From Mustelus asterias (taxonomy: Eukaryota), in assembly GCF_964213995.1 (NCBI RefSeq), contig NC_135808.1, forward strand, positions 12,834,001 to 12,898,000: DNA of 64,000 nucleotides, read 5' to 3'. Below the pieces are notes generated by a model. That model was not told the DNA's origin, did not search any database, and saw nothing but the letters and a program-made list of their open reading frames with translations. Below are positions 40,220-45,849 of this stretch, piece after piece; within the stretch, counting starts at the first letter, position 1; every line of letters begins with the position of its first letter. A program made the position numbers and the translations under genes.

Positions 40220-40723
40220 GAGAGCATTGTCAGAAGCTACAGAAGTATATAGATAGGCTGGAAATTTGGGCAAAGAAATGGCAGATGGAGTTCAATCCTG
40301 ATAAATGCGAAGTGATGCATTTTGGTAGAAATAATGTAGGGAGGAGCTATACAATAAATGGCAGAACCATAAAGGGTGTAGATACGCAGAGGGACCTGGG
40401 TGTGCAAGTCCACAGATCCTTGAAGGTGACGTCACAGGTGGAGAAGGTGGTGAAGAAGGCATATGGCATGCTTGCCTTTATAAGACGGGGCATGGAGTAT
40501 AAAAGTTGGGGTCTGATGTTGCAGATGTATAGAACGTTGGTTCGGCCGCATTTGGAAGACTGCGTCCAGTTCTGGTCGCCACACTACCAGAAGGACGTGG
40601 AGGCTTTGGAGAGTTTACCAGGAGGTTGCCTGGTATGGAGGGGCTTAGTTATGAGGAGAGATTGGGTAAACTGGGCTTGTTCTCCCTGGAAAGACGGAGG
40701 ATGAGGGGAGACTTAATAGAGGT

Positions 40724-43700
40724 TGATGCACCTCAATGAGCACCCGGAAACAAGGCTTTAGAACTGAAGGCTTTAATACATTAACAATGAAACTACTAAC
40801 ACAAATTCACCCGTTCAGACTGAAGGGGTCCTGCCGGAGCAGGGGGTCTTATACCCTGCCACCGGAGGCGGGACCCCACTGGAGTGTGCCATGATAACAC
40901 TTGGGACAGGTAAACACCCTATCCCAACAACATAGTACAACCCCCATAACAACAACAATAACAACCCCAGTGGTGAACCAACGATGGTTCACCACATTCA
41001 CCCCTCCTTTAGGAACCAAAGGTGGCGGGGTGGATGAAAACAGACAATGACAAAAAAAATAACAGGATTCACAAGTCCAGACGGTCTGGAGGACCACACC
41101 GACGCTGCGATCTTCTCAACACCGGTTGCGAAACCGGAGCAGGTGCTTGCGGTGGCTCTCTCAAAGCAACATCTGGCTGTCCCCTCAAAGACTCCCGGGC
41201 CGGCCGGCCCTGATGAGGCGATGGTGTAGGGGATCCTGGAACGTTTGGTGGTGGTGGTGGTGGTGATGATGGTGGCGCCGATCTCCGAGTCTCAGGCAAG
41301 CTGTACATGGGAGTAAAAGTGTTATGCACTGGTCCCGGTGCTGACCGCGCCACGTCTGGGGAAGTAATGAGGAGTAGTGGATCTGTGACTGGGGGAATAG
41401 GAGCGACAGGAGTTGCTACGTCCCCTGCGGGCGCCAGGTCTCTAATGGAGACAGTGTCCTCTCGCCCGTCAGGATATGCCACATAGGCATACTGAGGGTT
41501 GGCGTGGAGGAGTTGGACCGGTTCGACCAAGGGGTCGGACTTGCGAGCCCTCACATGGCGCCGCAGAAGGACGGGTCCTGGGTACGTCAACCAGGCTGGC
41601 AATGAGGTCCCCGAGGACGACTTCCGAGGGAATGAGAACATCCTCTCGTGGGGAGTAGCATTGGTTGCCGTACACAGGAGGGAGCGGATAGAATGGAGCG
41701 CAGTTGGAAGGACCTCCTGCCACCGGGAGACTGGAAGGCCCTTGGATTTCAGTGCCAGTAGGACAGCCTTCCAGACTGTAGCATTCTCCCTTTCCACCTG
41801 TCCGTTACCCCTAGGGTTGTAGCTCGTGGTTCTACTAGAGGCAATCCCGAATGAGAGCAGGAATTGCCTCAAGTCGTTGCTCATGAACGACGAGCCCCTG
41901 TCGCTATGAATATAGCAGGGGTACCCGAACAGGGTAAAAAGCTCACTGAATGCCTTGATGACGGTGGCAGTCGACGTGTCCGCACAGGGGAAAACAAACG
42001 GAAACCGGGAAAATTCGTCTATTATGTTAAGAAAATAGACATTCCGATCCGTTGAGGGAAGGGGGCCCTTAAAATCTACACTCAGCCTCTCAAAAGGGCG
42101 AGTGGCCTTGACCAAATGTGCCCGGTCTGGTCGATAAAAGTGTGGTTTGCATTCTGCGCAAATCCGACAACTTCTAGTAACTGACCTGACCTCCTCCACC
42201 GAGTAGGGTAGGTTGCGGGCTTTTATGAAGTGGTAGAGTCTGGTGACTCCAGGATGACACAGATCATTGTGGAGAGCCTTCAAGCGGTCCTCCTGCATGA
42301 TGGCGCATGTTCCGCGCGAGAGGGCATCCGAGGGCTCATTGAGCTTCCCTGGACGATACATAATATCGTAATTATAGGTGGAGAGCTCAATTCTCCACCG
42401 CAAGATCTTATCGTTCTTGATCTTGCCCCTCTGCGTGTTACTGAACATAAACGCCACGGATCGTTGATCCGTGATCAGGGTGAACCGCTTACCTGCCAGG
42501 TAATGGCGCCAGTGTCTGACTGCCTCCACAATGGCCTGAGCCTCCTTTTCCACCGCTGAGTGCCGAATCTCTGGGCCTTGAAGGGTGCGGGAAAAAAACG
42601 CGACGGGCCTGCCTGCCTGGTTTAGTGTGGCGGCTAGGGCGAAGTCCAATGCATCACTCTCCACCTGGAAAGGGATGGATTCATCCACCGCGTGCATCGT
42701 GGCTTTCGAGATGTCGCTTTTCAAAACCTTGAAGGCCAATTGGGCCTCCGGCGTAAGTGGGAAGGTCGTGGACTTAATGAGCGGACGAGCTTTGTCCGCG
42801 TAGTTGGGGACCCACTGTGCACAATACGAAAAGAACCCGAGGCATCTCCTCAGTGCTTTCGTGCTAGCGGGCAAGGGAAGTTCAGTGAGTGGGCGCATAC
42901 GGTCTGGATCAGGGCCAATGACCCCGTTTTCCACCACGTATCCGAGGATGGCTAACCTACGCGTACGGAATACGCACTTTTCCCTGTTATAGGTCAGATT
43001 CAGGCGAGATGCAGTGCGTAGAAAGTGTTGGAGATTCGTGTCGTGGTCCTGCTGGTCATGGCCGCAGATGGTGACGTTATCCAGGTACGGGAAGGTAGCC
43101 CGCAACCCGTTCTGGTCCACCATTCGGTCCATAGCACGCTGGAAGACCGAGACCCCATTGGTGACACCAAATGGAACCCTGAGGAATTGGTATAGACGAC
43201 CATCCGCCTCAAAAGCCGTATATTGTCGGTCCTCTGGGCGGATGGGGAGTTGATGGTAGGCGGACTTAAGGTCTATGGTAGAAAACACTCGGTACTGCGC
43301 AATCTGATTGACCATATCAGAAATGCGCGGGAGAGGATACGCATCCAGCTGCGTGTATCTATTAATGGTCTGACTATAGTCGATGACCATCCGAGGTTTG
43401 TTCCCGCTTTTGACTACCACGACCTGCGCTCTCCACGGACTAGCACTGGCCTGTATGATCCCTTCCTTGAGGAGCCGCTGAACCTCAGATCTAATAAAGA
43501 TCCGGTCCTCAGCGCTGTAACGCCTACTTTTAGTAGCGATGGGCTTGCAGCCAGGTACCAGATTTTTAAAAAGGGATGGTGTCGTGATCTTCAGGGTGGA
43601 TAGATTGCACGCGGGGCGTTTTGGGCAATTTGGAGGCTGCGGCTGGCTCCCTACGGCCAGTGAAGGGAGTGGCCCACCGTACTGTAGGATCACACTCTTC

Positions 43701-45401
43701 ATGTGGACCATAAAATTTAGTCCGAGGAGAATTGGCGCGCAAAGGTGAGGTAACACAAGGAGCCTGTATTGCTCGTAAACTGTGCCCTGTACCTCAAGAG
43801 TTACCATACATCGTCCTTGGATCGGTACAGACCGGGACTGTGATGCCATGGAAATTGTCTGCTTGGCAGGGAGAACCCGGAGTCCACACCTTTTAGCAGT
43901 TTCAGGGTGTATGAAACTTTCGGTGCTCCCACTGTCAAACAGACAATTTACAGTTCTGCCACTAACCTTTACCTCCATCATGGAATGTTCCAGTCTGTAA
44001 TGCCTGGTCTGATCCAGAGAGATCGACGCCACCGTTGGCCCCTGGGTGTCACTGCATGCTGCCGATGTGGATGCTGAGGACCCCTGCTGGTCGCTGCTGC
44101 ATGCTGCCGATGTGGATGCTGAGGACCCCTGCTGGTCGCTCCTAGTCGTCGTGGACCATGATGGCCGCCCCCATGAATCGCATGTGGCCGAGGGCTCCAA
44201 GCGCAGCGACTCCTGGTGGTCTTCCTCCTCCTCTGTTTGCCACGATGGCGCCGTCCTGAGATCGCACGTGGTCGGACCTCGTGGGTACTGCGACGCCGAA
44301 GGAGATTGTCTCCGTTCTGGAGGGTTACAAGCTGCACTGCCGTTTTTAGGTTTGGACCTGCAGACTTTGCCGTAGTGGCCTTTTTTACCGCACTGGCTGC
44401 AGATTGCCGTTCTTGCCGGACACTGCTGCCGTGGATGCTTGGCCCCACCGCAAAAATAGCATCGCTGGCCCCCTGGAGCTGCCGCCGTCGTCGAATCGAT
44501 CTGGGAGCGCGGGTTCGCGGGGCGAGGAGGGAGCAGAGCTTGCTCCAACCACGTTGACTGCACGTGGTCCTCGGGGTACAGCGCCAAGCTCTTCGACGCC
44601 GCCTCCAACCTCACGGCCATCCCCATTGCCTGGGTCAAGTTGAGTTTCCCCTTTTCTAATAATTTAAGTCTGATGTACGAGGACCCTACCCCTGCTACGA
44701 ACGCATCTCGGGCGAGGTCTTGCATGTACTGCTCGGCGGAGACGTCCTTACAGTCACAACCCCTGGCAAGCTGCAGGAGTTCATTGGCGTAGTCTTCTAT
44801 GGTCTCGCCCGACTGCCGACGTCGTGTAGCGAGGAGATAACGAGCGTGAATCTCGTTGGGTGGCGTAATGTACCTATTCTTTAGGAGCTCGACGGCACCC
44901 TGGTAAGTGGAAGCTGCACGAATGGCTAGGTAAATCGTGTCGCTTACCCTTGCGTGGAGGACCTGGAGTCTATCACTGTCTGTAGTGATAGCTACCGAGG
45001 CTGCCAGGTAGTCCTCAAAGCACTTCCACCAATGTTCGAACGTGTTAGCTGCACCGACCGCACGTGGGTCCAGTGTCAGACGATCCGGTTTTAGGATCTG
45101 TTCCATATTCTCAGTTAATGTATTAAATTGATGCACCTCAATGAGCACCCGGAAACAAGGCTTTAGAACTGAAGGCTTTAATACATTAACAATGAAACTA
45201 CTAACACAAATTCACCCGTTCAGACTGAAGGGGTCCTGCCGGAGCAGGGGGTCTTATACCCTGCCACCGGAGGCGGGACCCCACTGGAGTGTGCCATGAT
45301 AACACTTGGGACAGGTAAACACCCTATCCCAACAACATAGTACAACCCCCATAACAACAACAATAACAACCCCAGTGGTGAACCAACGATGGTTCACCAC
45401 A
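40724..45401 (-). mobile_element. Full-length Ty3/Gypsy LTR retrotransposon
   Basis: 273-bp TG...CA LTRs at 40724-40996 and 45129-45401 (identical by eye), TSD GAGGT (40719-40723 and 45402-45406), PPT AAAGGAGGGGTGAA at 41010-40997, single gag-pol ORF. Confidence 0.97.
41069..45106 (-). CDS. Gypsy Gag-Pol polyprotein (two CCHC knuckles, protease, RT, RNase H, integrase), about 1345 aa
   Basis: ATG at 45106 (MEQILKP); CYFCGGAKHPRQQC, CSQCGKKGHYGKVC, LFDSGS, YLDN, ESDAL/EKEA/TDQ, HHCC, VDFKG-SDRG-VERE. Confidence 0.95.
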   Translation of the reverse strand: MEQILKPDRLTLDPRAVGAANTFEHWWKCFEDYLAASVAITTDSDRLQVLHARVSDTIYLAIRAASTYQGAVELLKNRYITPPNEIHARYLLATRRRQSGETIEDYANELLQLARGCDCKDVSAEQYMQDLARDAFVAGVGSSYIRLKLLEKGKLNLTQAMGMAVRLEAASKSLALYPEDHVQSTWLEQALLPPRPANPRSQIDSTTAAAPGGQRCYFCGGAKHPRQQCPARTAICSQCGKKGHYGKVCRSKPKNGSAACNPPERRQSPSASQYPRGPTTCDLRTAPSWQTEEEEDHQESLRLEPSATCDSWGRPSWSTTTRSDQQGSSASTSAACSSDQQGSSASTSAACSDTQGPTVASISLDQTRHYRLEHSMMEVKVSGRTVNCLFDSGSTESFIHPETAKRCGLRVLPAKQTISMASQSRSVPIQGRCMVTLEVQGTVYEQYRLLVLPHLCAPILLGLNFMVHMKSVILQYGGPLPSLAVGSQPQPPNCPKRPACNLSTLKITTPSLFKNLVPGCKPIATKSRRYSAEDRIFIRSEVQRLLKEGIIQASASPWRAQVVVVKSGNKPRMVIDYSQTINRYTQLDAYPLPRISDMVNQIAQYRVFSTIDLKSAYHQLPIRPEDRQYTAFEADGRLYQFLRVPFGVTNGVSVFQRAMDRMVDQNGLRATFPYLDNVTICGHDQQDHDTNLQHFLRTASRLNLTYNREKCVFRTRRLAILGYVVENGVIGPDPDRMRPLTELPLPASTKALRRCLGFFSYCAQWVPNYADKARPLIKSTTFPLTPEAQLAFKVLKSDISKATMHAVDESIPFQVESDALDFALAATLNQAGRPVAFFSRTLQGPEIRHSAVEKEAQAIVEAVRHWRHYLAGKRFTLITDQRSVAFMFSNTQRGKIKNDKILRWRIELSTYNYDIMYRPGKLNEPSDALSRGTCAIMQEDRLKALHNDLCHPGVTRLYHFIKARNLPYSVEEVRSVTRSCRICAECKPHFYRPDRAHLVKATRPFERLSVDFKGPLPSTDRNVYFLNIIDEFSRFPFVFPCADTSTATVIKAFSELFTLFGYPCYIHSDRGSSFMSNDLRQFLLSFGIASSRTTSYNPRGNGQVERENATVWKAVLLALKSKGLPVSRWQEVLPTALHSIRSLLCTATNATPHERMFSFPRKSSSGTSLPAWLTYPGPVLLRRHVRARKSDPLVEPVQLLHANPQYAYVAYPDGREDTVSIRDLAPAGDVATPVAPIPPVTDPLLLITSPDVARSAPGPVHNTFTPMYSLPETRRSAPPSSPPPPPPNVPGSPTPSPHQGRPARESLRGQPDVALREPPQAPAPVSQPVLRRSQRRCGPPDRLDL

Positions 45402-45849
45402 GAGGTGTATAAAATTATGAAAGGCATAGATAGGGTGAACGGTGGGAAGCTTTTCGCCAGGTCGGTGGTGACGTTCACGAGGGGTCATAGGTTCAAGGTG
45501 AAGTGGGGGCGGTTTAACACAGATATCAGAGGGTGGTGGGGGCCTGGAATGCGCTGCCAGGCAAGGTGGTGGAGGCGGACACACTGGGAACGTTTAAGAC
45601 TTATCTAGACAGCCATATGAACGGAGTGGGAATGGAGGAATACAAAAGAAAGGTCTAATTTGGACCAGGGAGCGGCACGGGCTTGGAGGGCCGAAGGGCC
45701 TGTTCCTGTGCTGTATTGTTCTTTGGTATATGCTAATTTCTTGTAACTGGACCTTAACTATAAATGTCTGTTTAATCCTTGGATTGAAGTTCCTCCTGGT
45801 GAACCACTATTTATCTCTTAGTTCATGGGATGTGGGTATGGGCCTCGAG

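Follow-up and report, generated by a model that had tools for sequence, protein, structure and literature searches.

A 4.7-kb LTR retrotransposon of Mustelus asterias (contig NC_135808.1) very probably primes its reverse transcription with its own LTR RNA and independently of tRNA. The element occupies 45401-40724 on the minus strand of the window, by which we mean the whole stretch of 64,000 nucleotides analysed, and the self-complementarity sits at its 5' end. What the sequences show is the pairing itself, a fixed register in which the CA of the LTR end is followed by one base and then by the primer site, a strict 13-bp Watson-Crick core and the absence of TGG. They also show insertions that carry, directly behind the LTR end, an extended copy of the arm region, the part of the LTR that pairs with the site. 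With moderate confidence, the sequence patterns suggest that the primer is LTR RNA cut in cis from the 5' end of the transcript, just 3' of a TAAA motif.

The element and the pairing at its primer site

The element is a young Ty3/Gypsy copy. Its LTRs run from TG to CA, it has a 5-bp target duplication and a polypurine tract as expected of Ty3/Gypsy LTR retrotransposons, and Pfam hits gave the Ty3/Gypsy domain order of protease, RT, RNase H and integrase. The best PDB match of the element protein was Ty3 Gag-Pol (E 9e-62), and neither a chromodomain nor env was among the eight Pfam hits at E up to 0.001. All 150 scored Gag hits (150/150) were identical, which indicates a young family, and the host genome held 488 junctions of the window-copy type. 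The named protein relatives came, best first, from sharks and rays, then from a sea anemone, a tunicate and nematodes. Comparison with a protein atlas gave no clade name for the element, which may be Mag-like, and viral contigs yielded 74 pattern matches and no relatives. The features are as follows, in the order of the element strand.

45402..45406, minus strand: target-site duplication ACCTC, upstream copy
45129..45401, minus strand: 5' LTR, 273 bp, TG...CA, identical to the 3' LTR
45253..45258, minus strand: predicted TATA box TATAAG; TATA lies 31-34 nt before the initiator in most own-genome families
45224..45228, minus strand: initiator TCAGT; predicted +1, by motif, is the A at 45226, and the by-product L542 ends at the equivalent A
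45177..45190, minus strand: LTR arm, putative 3' end of the self-primer, with ATTAAA at 45182-45177
45174..45176, minus strand: conserved GCC/ACC after the arm; putative cut between 45177 and 45176
45128..45176, minus strand: loop of 49 nt, made up of the remainder of R, U5 and the single spacer A; putative template of minus strong-stop DNA
45114..45127, minus strand: primer-binding site without TGG, which pairs with the LTR arm
41069..45106, minus strand: single open frame of 1345 aa with Gag (two CCHC), protease, RT (YLDN), RNase H and integrase
41001..41010, minus strand: polypurine tract, separated from the 3' LTR by 4 nt
40724..40996, minus strand: 3' LTR, 273 bp, TG...CA, with a second arm copy and no primer site behind it
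40719..40723, minus strand: target-site duplication ACCTC, downstream copy

The initial annotation had described a 14-mer at the primer-site position that pairs with the element's own LTR over the poly(A) signal ATTAAA, with no TGG, and this was confirmed. Read on the minus strand, 45127-45114 and 45190-45177 are perfectly reverse-complementary: all 14 positions pair, and the complementarity stops on both sides. A single A (45128) separates the CA of the LTR end from the 14-mer, 7 nt lie between the 14-mer and the gag ATG (45106), and TGG is absent between the 5' LTR end and the gag ATGG in the window copy. Among 5000 first-order Markov shuffles of the LTR, the longest perfect complement was 12 nt and none reached 14. 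The stem was present in the predicted minimum-energy fold of the 5' RNA (z -2.7 and -1.5 for two RNA lengths), and single-sequence folds showed inner helices. The stem is possible at the 5' LTR only, and the poly(A) hexamer was mostly open in the predicted 3' fold. A search of 45050-45450 against Rfam gave no match.

Several other features of the window were noted. The first 26 bases of the LTR (45401-45376 and 40996-40971) are nearly palindromic. The RT motif of the window copy is YLDN, not YxDD (residues ~673-676), in a family with at least 150 copies identical in the Gag N-terminus; its Asn is common to many members of the clade, others have DD, and a literature search on the RT motif YLDN returned nothing relevant. 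The remainder of the window (1-64000) is rich in short interspersed repeats and pieces of other repeats.

Conservation of the pairing and comparison with tRNAs

Ninety related loci were collected from metagenome and genome contigs, and the 44 that lacked a 5' end were dropped. Sixty loci of other families from the element's own genome, the window copy and a sister copy, L211, were added, giving 108 loci in total. An anchored search found pairing at 11 or more of 13 positions in 97 of the 108 loci and at 13 of 13 in 79, while 12 or 13 of 13 never occurred in 1080 trials with shuffled upstream regions, for which the maximum was 11. Nine non-own loci were missed by this search. The stem was present in L064, L113 and L125 after anchor correction, L072 and L095 were decayed copies of a positive family, and L075 and L142 were without a true gag start. 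L078 and L087, which have an apparent gag start and no complement within their short contigs, are real misses.

The perfect cases comprised 43 different 13-mers, 21 of them from other organisms. When compared with the arms of other families, these 13-mers matched at a mean of 8.4 of 13 positions and at a maximum of 12, never 13. In all 43 families the site begins one base after CA and starts with TT (TTT in 42), not with the TGG of tRNA-primed elements. The arm is followed by GCC in 35 families and by ACC in six, and the loop in relatives is 24-66 nt long. The set was chosen for perfect pairing, so the use of G-U pairs cannot be assessed from it. Loss of the complementarity in diverged relatives had been named beforehand as an observation that would speak against the suggested interpretation; it was kept there, through matched changes on the two sides.

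Copies were also chosen from the primer-site side only. The pattern used matched 3204 junctions; the 100 listed matches, all on one contig, were taken, and the arm could be placed in 97 of them. Positions 1-13 paired in 92-97 of these copies, position 14 in 60, position 15 in 74 (with 20 G-U) and position 16 in 11. Over positions 8-14, 620 of 679 pairs were formed, whereas permutations gave 415 on average and 464 at most. Watson-Crick pairing is thus enforced over a core of 13 bp. Subfamilies with a fixed G-U pair or mismatch have it at position 14 or later, a pattern that is expected from copying and that a purely structural stem need not give. According to a review on Ty3, about 13 bp lie between the polymerase and RNase H sites of its RT (PMC5371799); the agreement in number is a lead only.

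Within a single family, covariation was nearly empty, as one of 100 listed junctions (488 in total) differed in the arm. Discordance between arm and site was checked by eye in 20 chosen copies, 17 of which had a 3' LTR; mostly the 5' arm alone or the site alone had changed, and in L448, L397 and L153 both arms differ from the site, as they do in L246, a copy examined separately. L456 (L442) and L457 (L384) carry two sister-subfamily alleles in the arm of the 5' LTR alone, and their 3' arm matches the primer site. A more distant relative (L103:34-140) keeps a 14-bp complement, with a different spacer and without the motif of TAAA followed by RCC.

A match of the 14-mer to a host tRNA end had likewise been named as evidence against self-priming. 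Within a partial set of 35 non-mitochondrial calls with 13 anticodon labels, the longest match of the partner to a real tRNA was 7 nt. Three 14-nt tRNA matches were rejected as false calls spanning the element itself. A tRNA family search gave 63 matches, and among 30 loci the 11 that were typed all had tRNA-Lys at their centre; ARAGORN found no tRNA within the window. A genome search for the arm outside LTRs was dominated by primer sites, and none of the 10 of 30 loci that were non-element lay inside a real tRNA call. Furthermore, each of the 43 family-specific sites matches its own LTR, which no set of tRNAs can track.

Palindromic and extended insertions

The complement continues past the primer site in 163 loci, among which three pairs are duplicates. 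Most are LTR palindromes of about 600 bp, many with 5-bp target duplications. In 142 the extension reaches the LTR start and stops, five rows enter the polypurine tract, and in 16 no LTR start was found. In a 98-locus subset, full palindromes that have TG...CA ends and a 5-bp target duplication account for 73 loci, at 72 different sites; in a later subset, 22 of 40 loci stopping at the LTR start have the duplication. The palindromes share a design of about 540-610 bp, with a full LTR, one A and the reverse complement of the arm and U3 (for example L252, L258, L239 and L245). One subfamily had 35 palindromes compared to 267 normal junctions, and the window's own family had five or six extended copies compared to 488 junctions; in each case the two search patterns differ in strictness.

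Full palindromes with a 5-bp target duplication must have arisen before integration. Since there is no polypurine tract in the palindrome and each matches its own subfamily, the palindromes most likely arose repeatedly during reverse transcription. We had expected the extensions to accumulate at the cap, and as a general rule they did not: 142 of 163 pass the predicted cap and only one ends there.

Nine copies jump into forward element sequence, after extensions of 17, 21, 25, 28, 28, 28, 38, 52 and 176 nt. In L211, for example, which has a target duplication and two identical LTRs, the complement extends over 28 nt before the sequence jumps into integrase. Eight of the nine jumps lie at or before the predicted cap, the exception being L247 with its 176 nt, which goes beyond the cap. 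The 52-nt extension of L542 reaches precisely to the predicted +1, but 6 nt of microhomology with pol span this point, and the real break could be earlier. Early jumps may be favoured by kinetics alone. Another arrangement was seen in L231-L234, which are target-duplicated and join an inverted 3' half of the element to the LTR end, the primer site and an inverted U3.

The template of the appended copies was considered from several sides. In L328 the appended R copy carries five sister-subfamily alleles, which implies a template other than the adjoining LTR. Five rows (four independent places) and L244 continue into the polypurine tract and beyond, which is consistent with a 3' R template. A left-versus-right test on 72 palindromes gave 17 subfamily swaps per 2.61 summed heterozygosity in R and 43 per 7.55 in U3, which is no excess in R over U3. 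Between palindrome halves, non-CpG mismatches amounted to 1.75% in upstream R compared to 0.9-1.4% in U3 bins, with no excess at segregating sites. Collectively, the by-products show that reverse-transcription DNA ends in, or traverses, an arm copy directly after the LTR end. Such products speak for a primer that extends beyond the paired core, but do not prove which R copy supplies it.

A candidate priming route, its competitors and known systems

The right end of an LTR is where minus-strand synthesis starts, so the primer must pair directly after CA. In the route proposed here, transcription would begin about 36 nt upstream of the arm. The arm would fold onto the primer site over a loop of 24-66 nt and, where it contains the 5' poly(A) hexamer, would hide it. 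A nuclease (RNase H, by analogy with Tf1) would cut between TAAA and RCC, leaving a capped primer of about 50 nt that is paired only by its last 13-15 nt. The very short minus strong-stop DNA would jump to the 3' R via the sequence from the cut to the poly(A) site. Plus-strand DNA would copy the primer, by which the primer site would be rewritten from the arm and the match would stay perfect. A copy overrunning the site, or an end folding back on its own arm, would give an LTR palindrome or an internally deleted copy, which integrase would still insert. Run-through to the LTR start needs an additional fold-back step, which would equally occur with a 13-nt primer or a 3' R primer, as the complementarity of arm and site permits it regardless.

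The position of the arm within the RNA is predicted from promoter motifs. The initial annotation had placed the partner about 65 nt from a TATA-like motif and away from the expected cap site; the distance measured from the start of TATAAG (45258) is 68 nt, and the conserved TATA-initiator pair agrees, by prediction, with a partner inside the RNA. In most own-genome families TATA and the TCAGT-like initiator are 31-34 nt apart and the arm starts 36-60 nt downstream of the initiator; the arm ends 50-55 nt after it (74-75 nt in one family). The argument comes mostly from one genome, the pair being found among non-own loci in L126 only. Contigs from four runs of unspecified kind yielded neither a transcript start nor a transcript end. 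On inspection by eye, the space for an intron from initiator to arm was judged too short. The partner is thus predicted to sit about 36 nt inside the transcript, unlike that of Tf1.

LTR RNA could also prime from the 3' R trimmed to TAAA, or as a short R-only transcript of a 5' or solo LTR. The arm exists in both R copies, most extensions traverse U3 and some reach the polypurine tract and pol, and the R copy of L328 comes from another subfamily, all of which would fit such a primer. However, the 5' arm is just 49 nt away and the predicted minimum-energy fold contains its stem, which should give it the advantage over partners that are distant or act in trans. Furthermore, the 142 of 163 extensions that end at the LTR start point to plus-strand DNA, not RNA, as the last template, and eight of nine jumps fall inside the predicted 5' fragment. 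A 3' or trans primer is unlikely, though it deserves serious consideration.

Improbable, too, is an exact Tf1 mechanism, in which the RNA would be capped at the arm's first base and would use its initial 13-15 nt as the primer. In the accessible passages on Tf1, the primer consists of the transcript's first 11 bases (PMC7175516) and RNase H cuts after the paired stretch (PMC7175516; PMC4600332; bioRxiv 10.1101/2022.12.06.519325). Such a primer would suit a strict core of sharply 13 nt, the window copy has a TCATT resembling an initiator 3 nt ahead of the arm, and the upstream start is predicted only. Yet most own-genome families have kept TATA and initiator at 36-60 nt upstream of where the arm begins, and extensions of 17-52 nt with microhomology jumps would be easier from a longer single-stranded copy.

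Self-priming, concealment of the 5' poly(A) signal, or both had been suggested for the pairing by the initial annotation. The first has gained support, and concealment as the sole function has become weaker. If the stem merely hid the signal and a host RNA (a tRNA fragment or other) primed at or near the site, one would understand why A(A/T)TAAA lies in the paired arm in 37 of 43 families and why a stem at the 5' LTR only leaves the hexamer mostly open in the 3' fold; the tRNA set compared was also small. This reading is very improbable, as the 43 different sites are each matched to their own LTR, positions 1-13 have no fixed G-U, no TGG is in register and every site begins with TT. Six of the 43 families lack A(A/T)TAAA in the arm, although three of them have one in the loop. 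Because these six keep the junction motif and register, poly(A) occlusion may accompany priming and cannot be the sole function of the pairing. Scarcely credible, finally, is an origin of the by-products from post-insertion rearrangements between short inverted repeats, which can seed template switches and could explain copies reaching pol (L244, L521/L522) as inversions, but not easily 73 of 98 loci that end exactly TG...CA with a 5-bp duplication at 72 sites, in many subfamilies and with a match to their own LTR.

Compared to known self-primed elements, the cis-cut primer proposed here has both shared and distinct features. First, in the passages available, Tf1/Tf2 (Schizosaccharomyces pombe), Tj1 and Tf1/sushi likewise have no tRNA site and a primer site that pairs with their own LTR RNA, and the complementarity to the own 5' LTR that marks Tf1/sushi is found here. 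Tf1/sushi elements also have a three-duplex 'pretzel' around the primer site. Second, the prediction here puts the arm 36-60 nt from the RNA start, mostly with a poly(A) hexamer in it; the core measures 13 bp, the loop is 24-66 nt long, and the search for a chromodomain was negative. A primer at the extreme 5' end is at odds with the promoter motifs, with which one by-product (L542) agrees. The arrangement resembles Tf1 self-priming, and membership of Tf1/sushi fails on the chromodomain and probably also on the predicted primer position. Third, plant Tcn1 (Gypsy) and TAR (Copia) are predicted self-primers with a complement of at least 10 bp located 0-5 bp after the 5' LTR, the same detection principle as used here in different lineages and hosts; the accessible passages mention neither an overlap with the poly(A) signal nor palindromic by-products (PMC6317226).

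The Mag-lineage and other non-chromovirus animal Gypsy clades (A, B, C and MolGy) are likewise compact, with Gag CCHC knuckles and aquatic animal hosts. The available text of two clade surveys (PMC6238403, PMC8556966) contains neither "PBS" nor "primer" and hence no account of the site. Considering the pairing over the hexamer, the element can also be compared with viruses. The 5' poly(A) hairpin of HIV-1 pairs over the hexamer at the 5' LTR; HIV-1 uses a tRNA primer, and its hairpin is separate from the primer site, whereas here the strand that covers the hexamer is the primer site itself.

In the parts of the literature searched, which included few subscription papers or Repbase reports, self-priming was described for Tf1/sushi, Tcn1 and TAR, and there was no mention of such palindromes or of priming at the poly(A) signal in any non-chromovirus clade of animals. 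Whether animal self-priming is new in print is uncertain. Some animal Gypsy families may reportedly be labelled self-primed in Repbase.

The broadest reading, for which we consider the evidence evenly balanced, is that a very large animal Gypsy clade outside Tf1/sushi uses a capped primer of about 50 nt cut inside R at the poly(A) signal. One 13-bp duplex would silence the 5' poly(A) site and supply the primer, the primer would be copied back each cycle, and misfires would give target-duplicated LTR palindromes, about one per eight normal copies in one subfamily. If true, this would be a second, animal-wide form of self-priming outside the Tf1/sushi chromoviruses, in which self-priming is established, making tRNA-free priming common among Gypsy elements, and the internal cut at the poly(A) signal would link priming to 3'-end control. 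Fragments of tRNA 3' ends, which could silence elements through the primer site, would presumably not act on such elements. As the family is young and abundant, the cap, the cut and the primer are directly mappable in tissue RNA and cDNA.

The palindromic insertions provide genome-only evidence on a reverse-transcription intermediate. They could be taken for inverted-repeat DNA transposons and, if transcribed, would be expected to yield long double-stranded RNA. Animal-type retrotransposons were also seen on contigs filed as bacterial genome bins (L141-L149), where they are probably host contamination.
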